Part shown: piece after piece, positions 27,517 through 49,751 of the stretch | Layout of the letters: each line of letters starts with the position of its first letter | How positions within the stretch are numbered: the first letter of the stretch is position 1 | The notes under the pieces: generated by a model | The model's input: only the letters and a program-made list of their open reading frames with translations | Databases searched by the model: none | Told to the model about the DNA's origin: nothing | Assembly: GCA_965215515.1 (NCBI GenBank) | Contig: OZ244057.1 | Location: 1,120,001 to 1,184,000, forward strand | Source of the DNA: Oligoflexales bacterium | GTDB taxonomy: Bacteria; Bdellovibrionota_B; Oligoflexia; Oligoflexales; JAPPIL01 | DNA: 64,000 bases | Reading direction: 5' to 3' | Made by a program: the position numbers and the translations under genes

Positions 27517-28716
27517 TCACTTTTTTTTGCGCAGCCCGACAAGGCGGCGCACTGGCGTTATCTTACCGCGATAAACACGGGTCAGAAAGACGCTATCCGA
27601 ACCTTGATTGTCCTCCTTGTCGTAGGTAAGCTGCAAGTCATCGATAGCAAACGTGGTTAACGTATGTTTGAAAGATTGCAAAAAACTGCTGTGATCGACA
27701 TCCGCCCCCGCCTTCTCTAGAGCCGCGCTCACCAGACGGCCGACGACGTAGCCCTCCAACGAGATAAAACCAGGCTTCGCCTTGGGGGCGACTGCCTGCA
27801 GTGCCTTACGGTAGTTGGCTACCAGCGGGCTGCGTAGGTTGTCGGGGGGTGGCACGACCTGTGTTACATACACGCGTGAGCGGTTTTTTTGCAGTTGGGC
27901 GGCCATCGGCGTAACCCCCGTGAACGACACGGCCATGAACACCGTCGTGCGCATACCTATCTTGTTAGCCCACTTGATGAAGGTGGCGACGGGCAGGTAC
28001 GAACCGATGGAGATGATCGCCTGTGGCTTGCCGCGTTTGATGTCGAGCAAAGCGGTTTTGACGGCGAGTGTATTGCGGCGATAAGAACCAGACGAGACGA
28101 GTTCGGTGCCCTTGACCTCCTTCACCGCAGCCTGTACCCCGCGCAATCCGTCCAAACCGTACGAATCGTTCTGATAGAGCACGGCGATGCGCCTGATGTT
28201 TAAATCCTTGCGCAATCTGATCACCATCTCTTTGGTCTCTTGGGCGTAGGAAGCACGCACGTTAATCACCGTGTTCACATGCGACGTGCGCAGGAAGGAA
28301 GCACCCGTGAACGGGCCGATGTAGAGCAGGGCGGTTTTAGCGACAATCGGCAACGCCGCTTTAGAAGTCGGTGTGCCCACACCTCCGACTAGGGTAAAAA
28401 CTTTTTCTTTCTTGATCAACTCGTGGATATTGGTGATCGTCTGTTCTGGTTCGTAGCCGTCGTCTTTGCTAATCAGACGTAGCTTGCGTCCGTGTACACC
28501 ACCGTCAGCATTCACCGCTTCGAAGGCGGCGAGAATACCGAGCCGCATATTGATGCCCAACCCTTTGGCGACACCCGTCAGTGCGGCTGTCTGCCCGATC
28601 AAAATCTCGCTATCGCTGATGCCTTGGCGAGGGTCGATCGTCATGCCCTCGCCCGTCTCCCCCCGCGCGGGGAGGACTACCAAAAACCACAGGACTGCCA
28701 CACGCCAAACCGTCAC
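27517..28716 (-). CDS. periplasmic ligand-binding protein (LivJ/AmiC-like)
   Basis: IGQTAALTG, GGVHGRKL, DDGYEP, GVGTPT, NVRASY. Confidence 0.88.
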   Translation of the reverse strand: MTVWRVAVLWFLVVLPARGETGEGMTIDPRQGISDSEILIGQTAALTGVAKGLGINMRLGILAAFEAVNADGGVHGRKLRLISKDDGYEPEQTITNIHELIKKEKVFTLVGGVGTPTSKAALPIVAKTALLYIGPFTGASFLRTSHVNTVINVRASYAQETKEMVIRLRKDLNIRRIAVLYQNDSYGLDGLRGVQAAVKEVKGTELVSSGSYRRNTLAVKTALLDIKRGKPQAIISIGSYLPVATFIKWANKIGMRTTVFMAVSFTGVTPMAAQLQKNRSRVYVTQVVPPPDNLRSPLVANYRKALQAVAPKAKPGFISLEGYVVGRLVSAALEKAGADVDHSSFLQSFKHTLTTFAIDDLQLTYDKEDNQGSDSVFLTRVYRGKITPVRRLVGLRKKK

Positions 28717-29876
28717 CGTCGTGCCCCCAGGTAACGTAACGACAGATAGGTAAGATCATCGAATTGCTGCACACCCGCGGCGAATTCTAGCACTTTACGG
28801 TAAACATGCTCATCGTGTTCTGGTAGCGACCTGCCCGCCTGACCTGCTAGCTCAGCGATCAGTCGTTCTTCGCCATATTCCTCGCCGTCGGCGTTCATCG
28901 CTTCGGTAACACCGTCGGTGTAGACAAAAATGGTATCCTGTGGCTGCATGACGGTACTCCGCTCGGAAAATTTCTCCCCCTCCGAGATACCGAGGGGGAC
29001 ATCCTCGGTAAGCGGCAGCAGTTTGCACTTCCCGTCGCGGTCGATGAAGATAGGCGGCGTATGTCCTGCGTTGGTGTAGACCATTTCGCCTGAGGCGGTG
29101 TTCAAGATACCGAGAAAGATGGTGATGAACATGCAGTTTTCGTTGTTTTCGCAGCACTTCTCGTTGATTTTGCTGAGCAGCTCACCTGTGGAGATACTCA
29201 AACCCGAAGCCATGCCCCTGATCAGGGCCTGATTGGCCATCGCAAACAACGAGGCGGGAACACCTTTGCCCGACACATCCGCGACCAGAAAGGCGGTGTG
29301 TTCCGTGTCGAGTTGGAAAAAATCATAAAAATCCCCCCCCACCTCCTTCGCGGGGGTCATGAAAGCGTGGATGTCGCAACTTTTGTGGACGTTGAAGCCG
29401 TGCGGCAGAATGGATTTCTGAATCTTGTGTGCGAGGTTCAGTTCCTTCTTCAGCACCAGCAGGTCGTCGCGGGAACGCAGCGCTTCCCGTGTCTGATTGA
29501 GATTGCGATAGCTGCGCTGGATAGTCAGCTCCATATCCTGAAAATTGATCGGTTTGGTGATAAAGTCGAACGCTCCGTTGTTCATCGCCGTGCGAATATT
29601 GTCGATATCGCTGTAAGCGGAGACGACAATCGTGCGCAGGTCGAAACCCTCCTCGCCGATCTTCTGCAAGAGTGTCAACCCGTCCATCTTGGGCATATTG
29701 ATGTCGGACAACACGATGTCGATGATTGAGTGGTTCTCACGCAACACCTCCAGCGCCTCTTCCCCGTTGCGGCTGAAGGTAAATTCCCACTCCTTGCGAT
29801 GCACTTTGCGGCGGAATTTCTGCATGATGAGGGTTTCGACATCGACCTCGTCATCCACCACCAGAATCTTTACCAT
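28713..29876 (-). CDS. response regulator receiver - PP2C (SpoIIE/RsbU) phosphatase
   Basis: ILVVDDE, SDINMPKMDG; EVGGDFYD, ADVSGKG, YTDGVTEA, QFDD. Confidence 0.93.
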   Translation of the reverse strand: MVKILVVDDEVDVETLIMQKFRRKVHRKEWEFTFSRNGEEALEVLRENHSIIDIVLSDINMPKMDGLTLLQKIGEEGFDLRTIVVSAYSDIDNIRTAMNNGAFDFITKPINFQDMELTIQRSYRNLNQTREALRSRDDLLVLKKELNLAHKIQKSILPHGFNVHKSCDIHAFMTPAKEVGGDFYDFFQLDTEHTAFLVADVSGKGVPASLFAMANQALIRGMASGLSISTGELLSKINEKCCENNENCMFITIFLGILNTASGEMVYTNAGHTPPIFIDRDGKCKLLPLTEDVPLGISEGEKFSERSTVMQPQDTIFVYTDGVTEAMNADGEEYGEERLIAELAGQAGRSLPEHDEHVYRKVLEFAAGVQQFDDLTYLSLRYLGARR

Positions 29877-29891
29877 GGCTGCTTCTCCAAT

Positions 29892-30326
29892 TTAAACGCT
29901 GGTTCTCTTGCTCAACGTGACCTTGTTGTGGCCGTTTTTTAACTGTTCATAGGCCAGCCCATCGGTTAAATTTTTGACCAGGTGAATACCCACCCCACCG
30001 ACGGGGCGGTCTTCCAGGTCGGACTGAAAATAGACTCCACTCTCCGTTTCAACGATGTTGAACGGGATCGCGTTGTCCTCGACGGTGGCGACGATCATGC
30101 CGTCTTCACCGCCGCTGAGGGCGATGTCGATCTCGATAGCCCTCTTATCCCCCCCCTGACCGTGCTTGAAAATATTGACAACCACCTCTTCGAGGCAGAT
30201 CTTGAGATCGAAGTAGACCTTGTAGTCGAGATCGTGTGTGTCACGAAATCCGTCCAGCGCTTCCATGAACGAGTCCAGCTCCTCCTTTCGTCTGAGCTTG
30301 AACAGCAGGTCATTTTTTTGTTTCAT
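29892..30326 (-). CDS. RsbW-like anti-sigma factor / Ser kinase (HATPase)
   Basis: LEEVVVNIFKHG, VEDNAIPFN, RPVGGVGIHLV. Confidence 0.85.
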   Translation of the reverse strand: MKQKNDLLFKLRRKEELDSFMEALDGFRDTHDLDYKVYFDLKICLEEVVVNIFKHGQGGDKRAIEIDIALSGGEDGMIVATVEDNAIPFNIVETESGVYFQSDLEDRPVGGVGIHLVKNLTDGLAYEQLKNGHNKVTLSKRTSV

Positions 30327-33723: not shown

Positions 33724-34374
33724 TATTTTTGGCTGTTTCTCTTATCTTATCATCATCGTAGCCTTTATCAGCAATGACGTTGCCAGCTTGAGGCAAATTC
33801 TCAAGCAATTCTTCGGCCATCACAGCGTCATGCACCTGCCCTTCGGTAATGACAAAATCAACAGGTCGAGCCATATTGTCTGCTACCATACTAATCTTCG
33901 TCGTGTGGCCACCAACTGACTTGCCAATAGCGGCCTCTTCACCTTTGCGAGCACCACTGCTGTGTTGATGTGCCTTGACGATCGTAGCGTCTATGGACAC
34001 GCTGCCCAGATCACAATGTACCAGATAGCTGTCAAAGACAGATTGCAGCTTACCGCTCTTTCCTCAGTCCGTAAAGCGTTTGTGCAGTGCTCGCCAGTCG
34101 CCGTATTTTTCAGGCACACATCGCCACGGACACCCTGACTTTAGCTTAAATAAAATACCACGCACAGTCAGATGCAGCCTCTTCTTGCGATACACGCCCG
34201 CCTCCAACAGTTTGTTTTTAAGTATTGACCATTGTTCATCTGTGAGTATAATGCCTCTCATGGGTGAACCTCTGGAAATTATTGTTGTATCTTTCCATAT
34301 GATGCAGGTTTGCCCTACTAATTACAAGTGATTAGCACACACAAAAAATCATTAAACAAAACGGCGACACGCCC
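33716..34374 (-). mobile_element. IS5-family element, copy A (3'-truncated, broken transposase)
   Basis: TIR GGGCGTGTCGCCGTTT; LTDEQW, GCPWR, IDATIVKAHQH, ADKGYD. Confidence 0.9.
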
Positions 34375-35405
34375 TAGATAAATCACTTTCAACAATTTTA
34401 TGATGCAGCACCTTTCTTTCTGCAAAAATTTCATCTTCTCTCTCCGCGAGAATTTTTTTATTGCGCCGCACTAAATAAGGGCTGTCTGGTCTCCATTGCT
34501 GCAAATGTTCACTTAAATAAAATTTTGGATCAAGCAATTGCACAAGACTGTTGAACTGCTCTTGATCGCCAGTAAAGGGAGTTGCTGATAGCATTAATAA
34601 CGCTGGACTGTTGTAAACAATTTGTTCTGCTAGCTCACGCAGCCTCTTTGTGGCTTTGTTTTTATCTCGCACAAAATGATGACATTCATCAATAACGATA
34701 CAATCCCAACTTATATTTTGCAACGGCTTTAAATTTTCCCACCGCTTAACGAAATCACGCGACACAATTACCCGTTCCACCACCTGCCACGGATTTTTTA
34801 CGCCTCTGCTGCTTAAACGTTCCCGTGTGCCACGACCATATACTTCAAATGCTAAACCAAATCGCTCGTAAAGTTCTGTTTGCCACTTTTCGCAAAGATG
34901 TTGCGGGATAATAATTAACACCCGTTCAGCCCGCCTACGCCGTGTTAGCTCAGCCAGAATTATCGCGGCCTCGGTAGGCTTGCCTAGTCCAACGTCATCA
35001 CAAGCAATAGACGCGGGAACGGCAACGCATCAACCACCCTACGCCATGGCTCAAATTGCCACGGCTTAACCTCAATAGCACAACGCCTCGCCGTCTGTGG
35101 CTCTTTAGAATCCCTTCTGTCGGCTAACACCCTCTCCTTGCGCATTGCTAAAAACGGCTGATAAAGTTCCCGCCGCTGCACTTTTGCTTTATGCACAGCT
35201 GGAATTGCTCCCTCATGCGGTGGCAACACACGCAAGGTACTTGACTCAAGTTGCGGAATTGCCCACACACCTGCACTACTTCTTCGGCATAATTTGCCCC
35301 TTGCCGCAAAAGCTCAAGCTGCCAAAAATCCCTCTCTGCCTTCACAAAACGCCACACTCCACCACGACACTCAACTAATTGCCCTGGTGCTGGTTTGCTA
35401 ACCAT
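34375..35405 (-). pseudogene. SNF2-family helicase (DrmD-like) N-terminal remnant
   Basis: PGQLVECRG, PWQFEP, frameshifted Walker A (LGKPTEA), IPQHLCEKWQ, IDECHH, LSATP; cut by IS5. Confidence 0.8.
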
Positions 35406-35471
35406 AACTGAACTCCTCTACGTGATTGTTAGAAGCCGATAGGGTGTCCGCTTTTTACGGGGGCATCTACA
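35398..35471 (-). mobile_element. solo IS3 left end including orfA RBS and ATG
   Basis: 74 bp nearly identical to the element end at 46658-46732. Confidence 0.9.
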
Positions 35472-35633: not shown

Positions 35634-36191
35634 CTACCCGCTAGGGGTGCGTTTTTGTCTCAAAATTTTCTTGTTGGCGGTCAAGACCGGTAATGTCTGT
35701 CCTGCAAAATCTCCATCGTGCGTGACCAGTGTCAACCCTTGACTAAGACACAACTTAGCAAATATTTGGTCATTGAAATCAAACTTACCTGTGGCGTAGC
35801 TTGCAAATAAACTACGATGTTGCAGTTGCGAAAAGCCGCTTTCCAATACCTGACACATGCTCGTGATTTTCTTGGCAGCAATGGCAATTTGTTTAGCCAC
35901 TGGCTTGAAGTACTCGCTCTGACGATAAGTTTTAAAACTATTGCTGGGTGCGGTGTTTTTCCACTTTGTTCTCGCATAGGTATTGACAAACTCAGAGATG
36001 ACCAGAACATCGGTAAACAGCTGGCTTTTGGCTGTCAGCATGCTGTTAAACGCTGCTGAATACACTTCCTGCATTCTGTCGCCCTTGGTCTCTCTTGGAG
36101 AATAAATATAGAGCCATATATTGGCATCTAGGAACAGCTGTTCGGAGTCAGTGAACTTGTAGTTGTTTATGTTATGTGGTGGCAAACTCAA
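35634..36191 (-). CDS. PIN-domain ribonuclease
   Basis: LFLDANIW, ISEFVN, DFND, LVTHDGDF: acidic PIN residues intact. Confidence 0.88.
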   Translation of the reverse strand: MSLPPHNINNYKFTDSEQLFLDANIWLYIYSPRETKGDRMQEVYSAAFNSMLTAKSQLFTDVLVISEFVNTYARTKWKNTAPSNSFKTYRQSEYFKPVAKQIAIAAKKITSMCQVLESGFSQLQHRSLFASYATGKFDFNDQIFAKLCLSQGLTLVTHDGDFAGQTLPVLTANKKILRQKRTPSG

Positions 36192-36538
36192 CCCTCTTCA
36201 GCCGCCTTGACCGCTTGTCTGTGTTTCTCTGGGTCTTTGAAATACTGCTTGGCATTCTCAACAACAGCATCTATCAGTTCCTTGTCGTCGGGTTCAATGT
36301 CAGTATAGCTTAGGCGTGCCTCGATATCTTCTGCGGTAAACTCGCCATACAGACAACCTATCGCACGGTTCAGGAAGGCAGAAGTCAATATGGTCACATT
36401 GAGGAGCGAGAGATTGACATAGTAGCCCGCGTTAAAAGCCTCGACAATACGCTCGTAGAGCCTATCTCCGTCGCGAGTAGCTACGCACATAGGGCTGCCT
36501 ACCACCGAGATCACTGAAACCTTGACTTCGTTTGCCAT
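36188..36538 (-). CDS. STAS-like domain protein (DUF4325-type)
   Basis: DGDRLYERI, VNLSLLNVTILTSAFLNRAIGCLY; GAGG RBS. Confidence 0.8.
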   Translation of the reverse strand: MANEVKVSVISVVGSPMCVATRDGDRLYERIVEAFNAGYYVNLSLLNVTILTSAFLNRAIGCLYGEFTAEDIEARLSYTDIEPDDKELIDAVVENAKQYFKDPEKHRQAVKAAEEG

Positions 36539-36592
36539 GACCTACCTCACCAAAAAATCAACTAGTACCCGACCAAAACATGACAATACCCA

Positions 36593-37438
36593 CTATCCAA
36601 CGACGTTAACCTCTAGGCTCACCACTGTGCCAGGCAAGGTAAATGCCAAAGACGCATCATTTACTCGCCCCCCGCGCTTTTCCCAATAACCATTACCCGA
36701 TACGGTTCTAACACACCCTGCGTTGGAATCAAAGAAGCGATTGAGGTGCTGCAGCCCCATTCCTCCAGGTGCCCCTTGCCTAGTGGTATTTCCCTCCACC
36801 GCCCACCTGATTGCGTCAACTGCCGTTATGTCTTCTCGCCGAAAGTTCTTCACGCTCTGGTGTATGCCGATGCCCATGTCTGCTACGGTGAAGACGAGGC
36901 TCTTCTTTTTGAGGAAGAACTGCCCGCAGCTGAAAACATCCAGCTGTGTGTGGGCGTGCTGGGAGACGTTGTTGAAAATTTCCGAGACGTTCTTGGTGAA
37001 GTCCTTCTGCGCCTTGCCCTCCATGCTAACGACTTTGGGGTGGCGCAGCAACTCATTGAATACATAACTCGAAAAAGCGACTTCGTTCTCAGTAGCAAAT
37101 CTGCGATATGCGATAGTGGTGTCCCAGTTGTCCGCAACTTTCTCTCCTCCGTGATAGGAAAGGAAGCCGTTTCTCATCAGAATATATTCGAGTTTGTCAT
37201 CCGCAGTCACAAACTTAAATTGGTTTAGCCTTTGTTCTAGTAGGCAGACAATCCCGCCTAGCGGTGCGCACATATCGGCATCAATCCATTTAGTTCTCCG
37301 CATATCAATAACGATGTTGCTGGGTGAGCAGGCATGAACCCGTGCATACAAGCAAGCTAACGCCTCAAATCCATCTTGATTATGACCTATACTAGGCAAA
37401 GTAAGTGTAAACGTTTGCACCCTTGTGTCCTCAGCCAT
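36593..37438 (-). CDS. STAS-like + HATPase (anti-sigma kinase-like) protein
   Basis: N-terminal IVIDMRRTKWIDA; N-box SEIFNNVSQHA, G1 ADMGIGI, G2 GGMGL; start 37438 or 37420. Confidence 0.82.
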   Translation of the reverse strand: MAEDTRVQTFTLTLPSIGHNQDGFEALACLYARVHACSPSNIVIDMRRTKWIDADMCAPLGGIVCLLEQRLNQFKFVTADDKLEYILMRNGFLSYHGGEKVADNWDTTIAYRRFATENEVAFSSYVFNELLRHPKVVSMEGKAQKDFTKNVSEIFNNVSQHAHTQLDVFSCGQFFLKKKSLVFTVADMGIGIHQSVKNFRREDITAVDAIRWAVEGNTTRQGAPGGMGLQHLNRFFDSNAGCVRTVSGNGYWEKRGGRVNDASLAFTLPGTVVSLEVNVVG

Positions 37439-37559: not shown

Positions 37560-40369
37560 GCAAACAATGCACTGCAAGGCTTTGAGATCCATAGCAGTTT
37601 TGTTGACCCTGAAACACTGCTTGGTATTGCTCACAGCGATAATTTTCACAGCATTCAAGCTACATACTGCAATGAACACATGCGAGCCTGGCGCGATTTT
37701 TACCGTGAGCTAGACCAAAAAAGCAAAAGATACTTTAACAAAAACAAACTAAAAGAACTCTATGACCAATGGTTTATCAAAACAATTGCTTATTTTGGCT
37801 ACCAAGATTTTAAACTACAATCAGAGGGCTTTATTTTTCCTGTCATCGACGGTTTATTCAAGCAAAATTTTCACCAGCACGGCAATCGTATCGGGGCATT
37901 GCTGCTGTACCCCATGAACGCATTGGTTGAAGATCAGTTCTTTCGTATTCTCAAGTATGCTAAGGGCACGGGTATCAGAGCAGGAATTTACAACGGCACA
38001 TTTAAAAATCCCTCCCGCTCTTTTCGTGAGAGGATAAACAAAAAAATACAAGGTGAAATTGATCCTGACATAAACCCTGACAGTGTATATGTTGATCCTA
38101 CTAAGCCTGAAACTGTGCCGCACATTTTATTAACTAACTACAAGATGCTTGAATATATGCTGCTACGTTCTTCCGATCAATCTCTGTTTAAAGACATTGA
38201 CCTACAGTATCTTGTGCTCGACGAAGCACATATCTATACAGGCACACTTGGCTTAGAGATAGCTTGTCTGCTAGCCCGCTTGCGAGTGCATCTCGATACA
38301 GGAGGTGAGAATTTTCTGCCTATTGCTACTTCGGCAACCTTAGTGCAAAAGCCATCACAAAGCGATGAAGCTAGCAATGGCAAGCAAGATAACAAAATGC
38401 GAGACTTCTTTACGCAACTGTTTGGTAAAGAATTCCCTGACAATAACAATTGGTTGCTTGAAGATGAGTATCAAGAGCTAGAAGATTATCAACAAGAGGC
38501 TTTTGCTAGATTTTTACAGGTGCGGTCGGCTGATATAGGTGCAGAGTTGAAGAAAAGTTTTCCTGATTCATTGCTCAGCTTAGCGAAGCTGTTCTTTGCT
38601 ATCAACTTAGAAGATACTGTGCCTAAAGGCAGCCAAGAAGCATACGAGCAGTGGGGTAAACTTATCTTTCCTCACGTTGAGCAGATGGCACGAGCATTGC
38701 CGAAAATTTTGCTAGATGATAATAGAGCTACTGTTATCAAGTGGCAAGATGCTATTGAGAAGTTTCACCGCGTATTACAAGGCTCGGCATCGCACCTAGA
38801 AGCTTTGCTGATACTGGCTAGCCATGCGTTTGTGGGAAATTTTAAATTTCCAACCTTAGGGCTGCGGGTGCATGTTTTCACTAAACCTGAACCATGTGTT
38901 TACTGGAGTCTTGATAAGCAAAGGCTAGCACGTCAGCCACAGGGTGATATGCTTGATTCCGTTTCCTGTCGCAACTGTGGGCATCAAGCCTGGGCAGCAC
39001 TCTATGAACCGCTTAACGAAGATGGCGGCACTTCTGGCAGGCTGTTACCCTTGCCAGATTTCTACGAAGAACATGACTATGCTAGTGGGCAAGAATTTGT
39101 CGTTTTTCATAACGTTGATGATATCGACGAAACTAGGGCGTGTCGCCGTTTTGATTCTATTATTTTAACAACTCCCTAGTGTTGCATGGCATAGCGTGGA
39201 TGACCAGACAACAATGCATCCAAGTAAAAGCATGCCTTCGTAGTTTCTTTTCAGCTTTTCATATCGTGTGGCAATAGACCTGAAGTGTTTTAGCCTTGCA
39301 AATAAATTCTCAACCTTAGGCCTGAGTTTATATGCTTCTTTACAGAAAGACTCGTTCTTTTTACTAGAATTACTCCTTCTTGGTATGACAGGATTGCCCA
39401 GATCACAATGTAGCAAATAGCTATCAAAGACAGATTGCAGCTTACCGCTCTTTACCCAGGCCGTAAAGCGTTTGTGCAGTGCTCGCCAGTCGCCGTATTT
39501 TTCAGGCACACATCGCCACGGACACCCTGACTTTAGCTTAAAAAAATACCATGCACAGTCAGATGCAGCCTCTTCTTGCGATACACGCCCGCCTCCAACA
39601 GTTTGTTTTTAAGTATTGACCATTGTTCATCTGTGAATATAATGCCTCTCATAGGTAAATCTCTGGAAATTATTGTTATGTCTTTCCATATGATGCAGGT
39701 TTGCCCTATTAATTACAAGTGATTAGCACACACAAAAAATTATTAAACGAAACGGCGACACACCCTAGCAAAAACAACATTAAGCCTGTATTTAAGGAAA
39801 TGGTAGAAAGCAACATGTTCAGTGTAAAGTTAAGTGTCAACGAGCAAGAAGTCTCTAACTACGAACCGTTTATTCCCACAGTATTTGGCAAGGGACAAGC
39901 AATTACCTTGACTATGCCACTTGGTGTGGTGCTACCTTATCTTACCAAGAGAGATGTCAGTGACGAAGATTTCTACACCACTTTTGGAGAATTTTTTATC
40001 AGAGCTACCCATCGTGTTTTACGTCTATGCAAGCGCGGTAATAGTTTGAAAATAGTGCTTGATAAGATCCATGCCCGTGCTGCAGCTGGCAGTGATAAGC
40101 AATATGATAAGGTAGATGTTATGCTGCTTGACACCGAAGAAGGTGGTAGCGGGATAATAGAGTTGATATGGGGTTATTGGGATGACATTTTGATAGAGGC
40201 AAAACGGCTTGTTGAGAAGGATTGCTGCAAGAACGCTTGTTATCACTGTGTGTGGAGCTATGACAATCAGAAGTTACATAATTTGATCAACAAAAGTATC
40301 TTTGCCTGCCAAAAAGCTCGTGCCACAGTTAGATTATGCTTTGCTCAAGGAGATTGTAAGTTCTTTTGA
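37560..40369 (+). pseudogene. DEAD/DEAH helicase with DUF1998-like C-terminus, internally deleted and split by IS5
   Basis: LYPMNALVEDQ, LTNYKMLEYMLLR, LDEAH, TSATL; C-terminal DTEEGGSG..CKNACYHC..SYDNQ. Walker A is lost. Removing the IS5 and one TA restores the frame (DETSKNN). Confidence 0.85.
39136..39765 (-). mobile_element. IS5-family element, copy B (both TIRs, internal deletion of about 290 bp)
   Basis: TIRs at both ends, TA duplication within a CTAG target. Confidence 0.92.
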
Positions 40370-40420
40370 AAAAGTTGCGTCACGGGTTGAGTTGCAAATC
40401 ACAAAAAGCGAGCATAGACA

Positions 40421-40690
40421 GGTGAAGAGAAATACAGCTGCTTCAAGATTGCGTTCAAGTCCTGTGTCCGTGAACTCCCTCCCCGACAAAGAGACATCAT
40501 TTCTGCTCGCTATGAGAATAACAAAACGATTACAGAGATCGCCGCTGATATGAGGATTAGCAGGCAAGCAGTGTTCAAAAGCATGAAAATTGCTCTGTCA
40601 AAATTGAAGGAAAGTTTGACCAGCGGCACGATACAAAGACGGGTTATCGCGGTGAAAGAACTGCTGCCTCTGACATTGACAAAAGGTTGA
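40421..40690 (+). pseudogene. sigma-70 region 4 / HTH remnant
   Basis: Unlisted frame reads RELPPRQRDIISARYENNKTITEIAADMRISRQAVFKSMKIALSKLK; stop just upstream. Confidence 0.7.
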
Positions 40691-40858
40691 TAAGAGGTTG
40701 ACACTTTCAGCAGATAGTTAGGTTTCTCCAATTAGTGGCAAACACCGCAGTTATCAAAGGAGTTGCAGCATACACATAGATTTATGGCGACAAGAAATAA
40801 CAGATAATGAGGTTGACATATCCCCTTCTTAATTGAAGTCGATTCAAAAGTTGGAACA

Positions 40859-41130
40859 TTGAACTTGGCTATTGAATTCGATGCCACGCACAAAAGCCAT
40901 CGCAGCCATAGGTGCAAGCTCAATGCCTATTATGTCCAAGATAAAATTGACAGAGTGCTTTATGTGTGTGCGAGCAAATACATTTTGCACACCCTACTTA
41001 AGCTAGATGCGGAGGCAGCCGAACGACATGCGTGCCAGTCTAAATTTTACTTCGCCTTGTTTAACGATGTCACTGAAGCAAAAAACGAAATGACATTTAA
41101 AAATACGCACGGGGACATCTACACATGCAA
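40859..41130 (+). pseudogene. possible replication-relaxation (PD-D/ExK-like) C-terminal remnant
   Basis: LAIEFDATHKS...KLNAYY...VLYVC pattern; context of an integrative element. Confidence 0.35.
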
Positions 41131-41153
41131 AGCAGAAAAACGTTGCTATTGGG

Positions 41154-41605
41154 GTGGTTGCAAGGAAAATTGTAGAAATCGACACGAGCCTAGCAAAGGT
41201 GGCCAGTCAGCGGGAAAGCATCGACAAACGCTTAAGCTTCTTGCTTGAGGGTGACGATCTGGAGATGGCACAATCGTTCAGAGACGAGTATGGCAAGCAG
41301 TTTATGAGTTTGAGGGACAAGGAACGGGAGCTTGACAGCACGAAGAGAGAACTTCAACTGCTGCACAAACACCTCTTGGAGGCTCGCCCTTCCCCGCAAA
41401 GCTGGAGGGTTGGATCTTGCTAGCGAGGCTATCAGCCACATTAAGAAGGATGATTTGACCTCGCTCAAGTCTGTATACCGAAGGATGTTTGAGAAAATTA
41501 TTATCCGTCCACTGGAGGGCAAGAAAGTTCAACTGGAGTTCATTTTCAAAGATGCGATCACACCACCTAGCGGGGGTGTGGTCATGTTTTGCACAGCGGT
41601 GGGCA
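41154..41605 (+). pseudogene. large serine recombinase C-terminal remnant (frameshifted)
   Basis: Coiled coil then LKSVYRRMFEKIIIRPLEGKKVQLEFIFK. Confidence 0.6.
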
Positions 41606-41681
41606 GCCCTCCCCCCAACTGTTGCCTTCCCCAGACCACACTCCCCTATTCTACGGCCTCAATACCGATAAAGCAAAACGG

Positions 41682-41709
41682 TTGCAAACCCTGGTCATTG
41701 CGCTATAAC
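41682..41709 (+). promoter_or_regulatory. putative tRNA promoter
   Basis: TTGCAA-N16-TATAAC, 14 bp upstream of the tRNA. Confidence 0.45.
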
Positions 41710-41723
41710 ACGGGGGTGCACCA

Positions 41724-41797
41724 GCACCCGTAGCTCAGTCGGATAGAGCAGCAGGCTTCGAACCTGAAGGTCGGGCGTTCGAATCGCTCCGGGTGCG
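41724..41797 (+). tRNA. tRNA-Arg (anticodon TCG), CCA not encoded
   Basis: Cloverleaf GCACCCG/CGGGTGC, D arm GCTC/GAGC, loop CT-TCG-AA, T loop TTCGAAT. Confidence 0.93.
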
Positions 41798-43186: not shown

Positions 43187-43690
43187 ATGTTTGACGTGCG
43201 TATGACAATTTTTGTGTGGCTCTTTTGTTTAACTCCGTCCTCTTGTGGGACGGAGGATCCAAGAAGTCTTCTACCAGGATTGCAGGAAACTGAAAGCCAA
43301 ACAAGCAAAGAAAACCTCAATACAAAACGGAAAATGCAAGAAGAGCAAGAAGAACAGGAAGAGCAGGAAGAGGAAAAAATTGTTGCATGCTATGGCAAAT
43401 GTTATACCCGCGAGGAATTTATCGACTATTGCATGGAAGCGTTCTGCGACAGTGACGGTTGTTTTTCGCTACCCGCCTGTCAGGGGCCTGCTGGTTGGGA
43501 AGAATCGCCGTCGCTAGCTATGTGCGAATACCATCAATGCCGGTTAGGAGGCTGCGATTATTGGGGACGAGAATGTGTACCTCGGAGTGATCCCCAACAA
43601 AAACAACCGTCATTAGAATTGTGCAAATACCACCAGTGCGAATTGGATGGTTGTGACCATTGGGGGGATTGTGTGCCTCGGAGTGAGTGA
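43187..43690 (+). CDS. Cys-rich putative lipoprotein with EEQ tract and duplicated Cys motif
   Basis: AGGAGG RBS, SSC, repeat PSLxxCxYHQCxLxGCDxWG. Confidence 0.7.
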   Translation: MFDVRMTIFVWLFCLTPSSCGTEDPRSLLPGLQETESQTSKENLNTKRKMQEEQEEQEEQEEEKIVACYGKCYTREEFIDYCMEAFCDSDGCFSLPACQGPAGWEESPSLAMCEYHQCRLGGCDYWGRECVPRSDPQQKQPSLELCKYHQCELDGCDHWGDCVPRSE

Positions 43691-45042: not shown

Positions 45043-47158
45043 GGGCGTGTCGCCGTTTTGATTCTATTATTTTAACAACTCCCTAGTGTTGCGTGGCATA
45101 GCGTGGATGACCAGACAACAATGCATCCAAGTAAGAGCATGCCTTCGTAGTTTCTTTTCAGCTTTTCATATCGTGTGGCAATAGACCTGAAGTGTTTTAG
45201 CCTTGCAAATAAATTCTCAACCTTAGGCCTGAGTTTATATGCTTCTTTACAGAAAGACTCGTTCTTTTTACTAGAATTACTCCTTCTTGGTATGACAGGA
45301 TTGCCCCCGTTATTTTTGGTTATTTCTCTTATCTTATCATCATCGTAGCATTTATCAGCTCGGTAATGACAAAATCAACAGGTCGAGCCATACTGTCTGC
45401 TACCATACTAAAATGACGTTGCCAGCTTGAGGCAAATTCTCAAGCAATTCTTCGGCCATCACAGCGTCATGCACCTGCCCTTCGGTAATGACAAAATCAA
45501 CAGGTCGAGCCATACTGTCTGCTACCATACTAATCTTCGTCGTGTGGCCACCAACTGACTTGCCAATAGCGGCCTCTTCGCCTTTGCGAGTGGAGTTGCT
45601 CCCAAAAAGCGGACAGTCTACCCAGCCTGTTGAAACTCCATGTACATCCTAGGTGACATCATGCCAAGTGCTTTGTGTGGTGCAACGTTGTTGTATTCAT
45701 CAAACCAGACATGCAATTTTTGCTTGACCACATCTGCTGAACTCAAGTTACTGACATAGGCATAGTCTCGTTTAAAAGTTTTCACGAACGCCTCCGCCAT
45801 ACCATTGCTTGCGGGGCTGTATGGTCTCGTAGTACAAACATCAAAGCCCAGATACTTGGCAAACGTTGTCGTCTGCCTAGCAACGTAACAGGGCCATTAT
45901 CCGATAGCCACTGTATTCTGTGCGGCAATTCATCGCCAAAACGTGCACCTACACAGTCAACCATCAAGTCTCTAACGAGACCACCATCAACGCCGCATGT
46001 CGAGCACGCCCAGCTGATTACCTCACGATCGTGGCAATCCATGGCAAACACAACCTCGAGACACTCCCCGTTATCGCACTGGATTCTGAAAGTATCCGAA
46101 CACCATCGAGTGTTGCTCCTCAACGTGGCCACCTTACCTTCGTGAACCCTTGTTGGCCTCGACGCATGCCTTCTCAACAGAAGATTATTGCGCTTCATGA
46201 TCCTGTAAACACGTTTATGATTGACCGCTGAAACAGCAAGGTCTCGTCGCAGCATGGCAGTCACCCGACGATACCCATAGGTGACCTTCGTGCGGATGAT
46301 CGCTAAAATACGCCGCAGAACGCTGCTGTCGCTCTTTTTCTGCCGCGAGAGCCTCTCCGAGTTACCCCTCATCTGCTTGTAGTAGTTAGACCTCGATGCC
46401 CCTAAAGCACGACAAATAGCCTTCACTGGAAACCTTCCACCCCTTGCAATGGTTTGTACGAAATCAACTTTTTTTTTCTGGCCACGAGCGAGACCGACAT
46501 GCCTGGTTGATAGGTTTCCATGACTATGGCCTGCTTTTCCGCTGGCCCCCACATCCGCCTTTTCCTGGTTAGAGAAAGCGGAACATCACCTTGCCGTTGC
46601 TCTGCAACAACGGCCGCTCCCTCTCTATCGGGTGCCTCCGAACTTACGAAACGATCACTAACCATAACTGAACTCCTCTACGTGAATTGTTAGAAGCCGA
46701 TAGGGTGTCCGCTTTTTACGGGGGCATCTACAGCGAGCACCGCTGCTGTGTTGATGTGCCTTGACGATCGTAGCGTCTATGGACACGTTGCCCAGATCAC
46801 AATGTACCAGATAGCTGTCAAAGACAGATTGCAGCTTACCGCTCTTTCCTCAGTCCGTAAAGCGTTTGTGCAGTGCTCGCCAGTCGCCGTATTTTTCAGG
46901 CACACATCGCCACGGACACCCTGACTTTAGCTTAAAAAATACCACGCACAGTCAGACGCAGCCTCTTCTTGCGATACACGCCCGCCTCCAACAGTTTGTT
47001 TTTAAGTATTGACCATTGTTCATCTGTGAGTACAATGCCTCTCATGGGCAGACCTCTGGAAATTATTGTCATGTCTTTCCATATGATGCAGGTTTGCCCT
47101 ACTAATTACAAGTGATTAGCACACACAAAAAATTATTAAACGAAACGGCGACACGCCC
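45043..47158 (-). mobile_element. IS5-family element, copy D, interrupted by IS3
   Basis: Both TIRs, TA duplication in CTAG; carries the IS3 and a 52-bp insertion. Confidence 0.92.
45591..46732 (-). mobile_element. IS3-family (IS2-like) element, defective, nested in IS5
   Basis: TG...CA ends, imperfect IRs, 5-bp target duplication GCGAG; orfA 46423..46665 shortened, A9G slippery site; orfB YGYRR, WCSD, SDNG, frameshift before MAEAFVKTFKRDY. Confidence 0.93.
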
Positions 47159-48591: not shown

Positions 48592-48673
48592 TGTAGATGC
48601 CCCCGCAAAAAGCGGACACCCTATCGGCTTTTAACAATCACGTAGAGGAGTTCAGTTATGGTTAGTGATCGTT
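48592..48673 (+). mobile_element. solo IS3 left end
   Basis: 82 bp including RBS and ATGGTTAGTGATCGTT. Confidence 0.9.
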
Positions 48674-49330
48674 CCGCATCTGGATGTGTTGCAAGGCACG
48701 TTCAAGCAGAGTGAATTTGCTGCCGACTTGACCCAAGTTGGGCATGGCACAGCCACACCTGAGTATAGCGAAGCACAAAAATTGCTAGGTTTGTGCATGC
48801 CCAACCATACTATTGCTAACTACGAGGATGTGCTAAAGAGTTGCGTCTCACTCATCTTGAGGAGTTATACTCGTGGGCTTTGTTCGTCACAAACAAAGAA
48901 GATTTGCGAGAAGAGTATGACCAAAGAGCTAGCTCTTACCTACATCCTGATAAGGCTGGAACCTGTATCACTACTGAAAAGAATTATCAAGATGGCCTGC
49001 CCACCAAAGGGATTATCTGCTGATTTCTTTGCAGGGTGTGCCAGTACTATTAGTGCAGCACATGAACTTAATTACAAGTGGCTTGGCTGCGATGTCTCTA
49101 AAGATGCTATTGCTGTTATTCGCAAGCGTATGGTCAAAGAGCATAAACTGAGAGTTGACGTAATCAGGGTTGGTACTTTGTCTAGAAAAGAAATCTATAA
49201 GCTTAGTCCCTTTGAGTTTGAAAAGAAAATGGTATCATTATTGCAAAAAGCTTTGCTAAAACTGCTTATGAAGAGGTTGATCGCTTATTTAATGAAGAAA
49301 GGTTGTCAATTGATCTTGTTCCTAGCGACG
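48665..49330 (+). pseudogene. chimeric remnant: DUF499-type ATPase N-terminus + N6/N4 DNA methyltransferase C-terminus
   Basis: VPHLDVLQGTFKQSEFAADL..TPEY; PVSLLKRIIKMACPPKG..ADFFAGC..AAHELNYKWLGCD; LSPFEFE. Confidence 0.7.
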
Positions 49331-49364
49331 ACATCATACGAGATGCGGCATAGACCCAAAACCC

Positions 49365-49751
49365 TCAAACCAAAATACTTTTAGTATAGACAATGCCTTT
49401 CTTGCCCCAAAAAGTAACAGGTGGGTCGATAACTTTAACAATCTCAACATGCCAACCCCATTTTGGTTTCTTCCATGCCCAGGGTGAGTTTTTATCTGTG
49501 CGGTGGTAATGATAATCGGCATAGAAAGTTTTGCGGTTGGGGTATTTTAAGCACTTGGTGAATTTGATGATAGCTGTAGCACGAGACTTGAACTTACCTC
49601 TTTGGCCTGGGGTTTCGATAAGTAGCATCTCCTTGTTAAGATAATGTGGTGGGAGAGGATAAGTGCGAGTTTCAATGATTTTTTTGCCTGCAATGATTTC
49701 TCTGGAGATAGGCCATTGAATGTTGATACCTGTGTAGGTTTTTTTAGTCAT
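49365..49751 (-). CDS. ASCH-domain protein
   Basis: INIQWP...IIAGKKIIETR (GxKxxExR motif). Confidence 0.8.
   Translation of the reverse strand: MTKKTYTGINIQWPISREIIAGKKIIETRTYPLPPHYLNKEMLLIETPGQRGKFKSRATAIIKFTKCLKYPNRKTFYADYHYHRTDKNSPWAWKKPKWGWHVEIVKVIDPPVTFWGKKGIVYTKSILV

Follow-up and report, generated by a model that had tools for sequence, protein, structure and literature searches.

The closest described relatives of the locus reported here are the vapKSC operons, a system named, crystallised and assayed against phages in 2026 (Chambers et al., EMBO J 2026, PMC13373217). Such an operon comprises three genes encoding a STAS-GHKL kinase (VapK), a STAS protein with a short C-terminal region (VapS) and a PIN nuclease (VapC); the available text of that paper counts 289 instances, of which 103 (36%) lie near other defence genes. 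According to the same text, Escherichia VapC is toxic and is bound and neutralised by VapS, the two forming a 2:2 complex of known crystal structure (PDB 9Z7O), while either the S48E substitution in VapS or deletion of its C-terminal region leads to loss of VapC binding and rescue. The Escherichia operon provides about 2-log protection against phage Bas42, which requires D28, S48 and F54, and this protection is called weak in the authors' reply (under 2 logs, 5 of BASEL phages 14-69). ssDNA-activated phosphorylation is described there as demonstrated only for CapK, the Escherichia VapK being insoluble (PMC13373217, available text). Apart from these operons, a PIN.4 cluster of PIN genes coupled to DUF4325 genes has been listed (Matelska et al., 2017, PMC5499597), whose row, in the accessible part of the source, carries neither a function nor a mention of a kinase; assignment of the present PIN to this cluster rests on gene pairing and not on a profile test. 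In a prophage, Fhv_0046-0048 (PMC7924643, as far as the accessible text describes them) encode a 293-aa protein and a DUF4325 protein, followed by a membrane protein gene and not by PIN, possibly representing a kinase-STAS switch with another output.

The locus analysed here lies in a 64,000-nucleotide stretch (the window) of contig OZ244057.1 from an Oligoflexales bacterium, with all three genes on the minus strand. These are vapK (36593..37438), encoding an N-terminal STAS plus GHKL (SpoIIAB-like) kinase supported by Pfam, homology and a structural model; vapS (36188..36538), encoding a 116-aa DUF4325 STAS-like protein; and vapC (35634..36191), encoding a PIN-domain RNase toxin, the latter two supported by Pfam and PDB matches. 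Both the PIN protein (PF01850, E 9e-10) and the STAS protein (DUF4325, E 8e-13) exceed the Pfam cut-offs, while the kinase retrieves HATPase_c_2 only (E 0.011, under the cut-off). Its N-terminal STAS region is recognised from the secondary-structure pattern and a weak STAS match (E 0.12), and the AlphaFold2 model built on a 42-row alignment (pLDDT 88.9) has SpoIIAB among its best Foldseek matches. Thus, frames, Pfam and model agree with the three co-oriented genes (STAS+HATPase, STAS and PIN) described in the earlier note, and the TSAFL segment corresponds to residues 52-56 of the STAS protein.

The gene starts required closer attention. Counted from the ATG, the vapK frame has 281 aa; a GTG at 37420, with a purine-rich stretch at the usual spacing and giving 275 aa as in the nearest homologues, is the more likely kinase start. 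Counted from TTG 36191, the vapC frame has 185 aa, and this codon does overlap the STAS stop, as first described; the real start, however, is probably TTG 36185, which has no overlap with vapS, since it is preceded, at a distance of 6 nt, by a purine-rich stretch and coincides with the starts of the nearest homologues. The public gene call P0005 (window 35634-36074) misses the TTG and begins the PIN protein at M40, with loss of the first catalytic Asp; the PIN start of the relative P0008 is miscalled in the same manner. The close relative P0052 is a 249-aa STAS-PIN fusion whose PIN part ends out of register and is likely a frameshift artefact. The letters of the triad are identical in the contigs of 4/4 public runs (one study, possibly the source itself, hence not independent), and to that extent an assembly error behind the kinase stop or residue D167 was rejected. 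Scans of the locus for promoters (four promoter-like sites against 3.3 expected) and terminators (two terminator-like sites against 2.8 expected) yielded nothing usable, and the search of the window genome for a second copy of the triad found just the one.

On sequence grounds, the triad belongs almost certainly to the VapKSC family, and hence constitutes one more copy, from another lineage, of a system that is itself already published. The sole PDB match of vapS at E<=1 is Escherichia VapS (9Z7O chain A, E 2e-9), with S53 aligning to the tested S48, and the short C-terminal region (residues 99-116) is present as in relatives. The best PDB match of vapC is Escherichia VapC (9Z7O chain C, E 6.6e-6), with D22 aligning to the tested D28 and with E67, D141, D159 and D161 aligned as well; a PIN family profile retrieves 9Z7O only (E 2e-12), that is, 1 of 177,635 PDB sequences at E<=0.01. 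The kinase shares 29, 45 and 40% identity with those of D. gobiensis I-0, Poribacteria WGA-3G and Zetaproteobacteria CG_4_9_14_3, respectively (pairwise E 2e-43 to 5e-79), three genomes matched to Dataset EV3 of PMC13373217 (as available) by genome name and not by IMG id. W51, N157 and K177/K178 correspond to F54, N160 and K180/K181 of Escherichia VapK by eye on the sequence printed in the accessible text, where hand-counted positions fall 5 below the paper's numbers for all four residues. N157 and W51 are invariant in 42/42 rows of the kinase alignment (A2), Trp being the commonest residue of this branch at the ssDNA-site aromatic (50/54 full kinases), and the vapK-vapS-vapC order is that of the D. 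gobiensis locus listed for VapKSC.

This membership settles several earlier suppositions. The triad had been put forward as a system without known experimental characterisation; the homologous Escherichia operon, however, is already characterised (PMC13373217, available text), and a match of this kind was among the grounds for refutation that the note itself had listed. The idea of a kinase phosphorylating a STAS protein to gate a PIN RNase of defence value, on the other hand, is the very model published for that operon (PMC13373217, available text). The operon indeed contains no DNA-binding antitoxin or sigma factor, as had been remarked, but none is needed: the STAS protein is itself the antitoxin, so that the absence no longer calls for explanation. 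The proposed PADLOC check was run and returned no system match in PADLOC-DB 2.0 (2023 library; a stray Cas11 at E 9e-4 and the N-terminal part of one DrmA model at E 2e-5), and NCBIfam gave no system-level match (VapC models at 13 bits against cut-offs of 74-80); novelty nevertheless fails, VapKSC having been found in the literature.

To assess conservation, PIN relatives were sought in the species-genome collection; 358 were confirmed, and the loci of the 80 best were retained. Among these best 80 of 358, STAS lies directly upstream of PIN in 80/80, with a full kinase upstream in 49/80, a split or partial one in 7/80, a full kinase downstream of PIN in 3/80 and none at the locus in 21/80; the neighbourhood search proposed for the triad thereby supported its conservation. 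Since the kinase-STAS-PIN order recurs across many phyla, the triad is not a chance arrangement. The order vapS-vapC-vapK occurs in three Thermodesulfobacteriota loci (L026:1588-2460, L067:8752-9621 and L070:8648-9514), while vapK is split by insertion, frameshifted or partial beside whole vapS and vapC in L008:5205-7635, L018, L019, L027, L033, L054 and L081. A STAS query added two further full triads, one on a Deinococcus plasmid and one on an unverified phage scaffold; in the former (D. gobiensis) vapK is immediately preceded by a gene for an HTH regulator (L082:2563-3024), and the latter (L083:1444-3183, MT837343.1) is a 7-kb unverified 'bacteriophage' scaffold. The one weak match among viral contigs, L001, was not retrieved by the PIN profile at E<=1e-5 and is excluded from every count. 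Metagenome contigs contained three distant kinases (31%), and no tail-less kinase relative with DNA was found among them. The kinase was matched in 2/60 related genomes; such a scattered distribution is what one would expect of a defence locus that is mobile. Serine or threonine occupies VapS position 53 in 51/51 full triads, 7/7 partial and 3/3 rearranged loci. Against L002, dN was much lower than dS in each of the three genes (0.34/1.8, 0.26/2.1 and 0.43/2.8), with dS near saturation.

The kinase is the gene that deviates from its relatives. The earlier note held all three genes to be full length with motifs intact; the catalytic residues are indeed kept, including E153, N157, H161, D187, G189 and G191 of the catalytic and nucleotide (N/D/G) boxes of the kinase, but the latter lacks the C-terminal tail of related loci. 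It stops 3 residues after N278, where 12-20 residues follow in 54/54 full kinases of related loci, and is thus without the 16-residue tail of most VapK, which Escherichia VapK possesses (as printed in the accessible text of PMC13373217). The spacer after the kinase stop (36539-36595, minus strand) has roughly the length of the sequence that encodes the tail in L002, to which it is similar close to the STAS start; it is probably a decayed kinase tail. Six database kinases of 59-93% identity, all whole open frames, end equally early and cluster together with the window kinase (100/100), on a long stem (0.79); because these six relatives share the short end in a single group, the tail loss is old and not a fresh lesion. 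Furthermore, the kinase departs from 34 columns conserved at >=90% in related loci, mostly in common with the tail-less group. D167 for G and T245 for I, however, fall at near-invariant columns and occur in none of the six nearest relatives, and drift of the A115 and K135/E140 type is seen at other kinase columns. The PIN protein deviates at just 5 well-conserved columns, all of them non-catalytic, and kinase and PIN identities in four tail-less relatives (presumptive kinase-PIN pairs) are 93/87, 80/75, 76/76 and 61/68%. As the kinase falls in this tail-less subclade, we can only infer the activity of the present copy. CapK, as printed in the Appendix (PMC13373217, accessible part), also ends without such a tail, yet is active.

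Decay of the kinase is common in the VapKSC family, given the 7/80 split or partial kinases and the 21/80 loci without one (best 80 of 358). The 21 kinase-less vapS-vapC pairs among these best 80 of 358 loci (L004, L005, L006, L011, L015-L017, L020, L021, L035, L040, L048, L051, L057, L062, L063, L065, L066, L072, L075 and L077) retain the PIN catalytic residues and belong to a Poribacteria clade, two Caldilineaceae and two further bacteria; they are not independent, as a quick tree places 17 of them in a single group of Poribacteria, alongside two pairs. A divergent kinase upstream was ruled out in 18/21 loci, where the upstream frame belongs to another Pfam family (SDR, methylase, MFS, HNH and debranching enzyme; of 24 scanned frames, 3 had no match). 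When whole genomes were searched with the kinase alignment, no VapK was found in 8/8 kinase-less genomes (of unstated completeness), whereas 2/2 controls were matched. Position 53 of VapS is S/T in 15/21 of these loci and Gly, Ala, Pro or Trp in the other six. That Ser/Thr is lost nowhere but in kinase-less loci agrees with a link from kinase to serine, although the cases behind it amount to about three related groups and are not independent. Such pairs would be missing from the published survey because its search was seeded with vapK (PMC13373217, available text), and no other treatment of them was found in the literature searched, where subscription papers or supplements could still bear on the matter. 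It might be speculated, as a rather doubtful generalisation, that VapKSC repeatedly sheds its kinase, that the window locus is an intermediate in which a tail-less and rapidly evolving VapK responds to a changed trigger or to none, and that the kinase-less pairs represent a kinase-independent STAS-PIN type of toxin-antitoxin system. If so, activation of these pairs would take a different path, for which proteolysis, a foreign kinase or a protein of phage origin would be candidates.

The surroundings of the triad are in a different state. As initially noticed, the helicase, methylase, recombinase and transposase neighbours are broken, with fragments and IS5-like interruptions on both sides. Just downstream of vapC, as context only, lies a 74-bp IS3-family remnant (35398..35471) that matches an element end, being 98.7% identical to 46658-46732 and to many other genome sites; an IS3-family element with IS3-type domains occupies 45590-46732, one end of which matches the remnant. 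Also downstream, family matches identify a broken SNF2/DrmD-like helicase gene (34355..35405, minus strand), the piece aligning with positions 144-369 of the 1040 in the model and terminating at an IS5-like repeat; two N-terminal pieces without a family match presumably belong to this gene. On the other side, family matches identify a broken DruE/DrmA-like DEAD-box helicase gene with an MZB domain (37680..40369, plus strand), the continuity of which is broken by an IS5-like repeat (39132-39776), and a methylase fragment lies at 48635-49381. The stretches 40418-40687 and 40817-41730 (plus strand) hold a Sigma70 region-4 type HTH, a repeated protein fragment and serine-recombinase fragments; those at 41094-41730 are C-terminal parts of a large serine recombinase, of which whole paralogues exist elsewhere in the window genome. 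The 15 PF07508 matches in this genome suggest a resident family of integrative elements. A fixed link of the triad to the flanking helicases was rejected, four flank pieces having no homologue in any related locus examined. A frame at 43187-43690 (plus strand) encodes a Cys-rich, lipoprotein-like product of 167 aa that contains an internal repeat and has no Pfam match. At 28713-30326 (minus strand), 5 kb from the triad, an RsbW-like HATPase (PF13581, E 3e-16) adjoins a receiver-SpoIIE phosphatase and an ammonium-transporter-like gene; this is an ordinary, separate partner-switch pair, and the triad was dropped as its regulator, the locus being separate and the partners of the triad already explained.

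Taken together, the analysis favours the reading that a working vapKSC toxin-antitoxin/anti-phage operon has probably been left in a decayed, IS-riddled defence island. In such an operon, VapS would keep VapC inactive in a 2:2 assembly whose interface buries the serine. The ssDNA that arises when DNA is damaged or a phage infects would bind VapK between its STAS and GHKL domains (W51), and the activated kinase would phosphorylate S53 of VapS. Phosphorylated VapS would then release VapC, and the freed toxin would cleave RNA, resulting in growth arrest. The loss of the tail, the long stem and the private D167 and T245 could instead indicate that the VapS-VapC pair works beside a crippled or decaying kinase, as a plain addiction module heading to the kinase-less form. 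The kinase-less pairs with intact PIN catalytic residues (21/80 loci, best 80 of 358), the lack of VapK in 8/8 kinase-less genomes searched (2/2 positive controls matched) and the breakage of every flanking defence gene point the same way. Nevertheless, this is unlikely, as the kinase catalytic and nucleotide-box residues, W51 and VapS S53 are all kept, the six tail-less kinases of one group (100/100) remain whole frames at identities as low as 59%, and in the four presumptively paired relatives the identity of the kinase follows that of PIN.

Alternatively, a single loss of a tail that kinases from Escherichia to Deinococcus otherwise retain, along with the many substitutions common to the subclade, could mean that the tail-less VapK is active but rewired to a trigger or threshold other than ssDNA, the tail having once been a regulatory or assembly element; retention of W51, the aromatic predicted to bind ssDNA, and of the basic residues K177/K178, and the ability of CapK to sense ssDNA without a tail (PMC13373217, available text), render this improbable. 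Least credible is a neutral, inactive passenger that IS elements or frameshifts have simply missed so far: although the triad spans only 1.8 kb in an IS-rich region, is present in 2/60 related genomes and has dN/dS values that, against a distant relative, reflect old and not current selection, its three genes are without a stop or frameshift while all larger neighbours are broken, and the five well-conserved columns at which PIN is off include no catalytic position. The value of the probably working operon is mainly comparative, as alone it adds little beyond one more lineage; its tail-less kinase and the kinase-less relatives are natural variants for the questions of VapS phosphorylation by VapK and of VapC release (PMC13373217, available text).

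In comparison with the known systems, the locus shares with VapKSC the kinase-STAS-PIN order, domain content, VapS length (116 aa) and place among defence genes, as well as the residue pairs S48/S53, D28/D22, F54/W51, N160/N157 and K180-K181/K177-K178. It differs in lacking the C-terminal tail of Escherichia VapK, in having Trp instead of Phe at the ssDNA site and in its roughly 30% identity to the assayed Escherichia proteins. With CapK/CapS it has in common a STAS-GHKL kinase with the conserved aromatic and a STAS serine as target, whereas its kinase is without the N-terminal HTH, its STAS protein without a wHTH and its output a PIN toxin instead of transcription; membership was rejected, as the kinase begins with the STAS region and the 116-aa STAS protein has no match to CapS structures. 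The GHKL fold (SpoIIAB 1L0O and 1TIL, E ~2e-5) and the serine in a STAS helix are shared with SpoIIAB/SpoIIAA and RsbW/RsbV, but the kinase here carries an extra STAS domain, the operon has no sigma factor and the gated partner is a nuclease. As in type II VapBC, a PIN RNase toxin is held by a protein antitoxin encoded directly upstream. Membership of VapBC was nevertheless rejected, the upstream gene being DUF4325 and no VapB-type family occurring among the flanking frames scanned; the antitoxin here is a STAS protein released by phosphorylation, and not a DNA-binding VapB.
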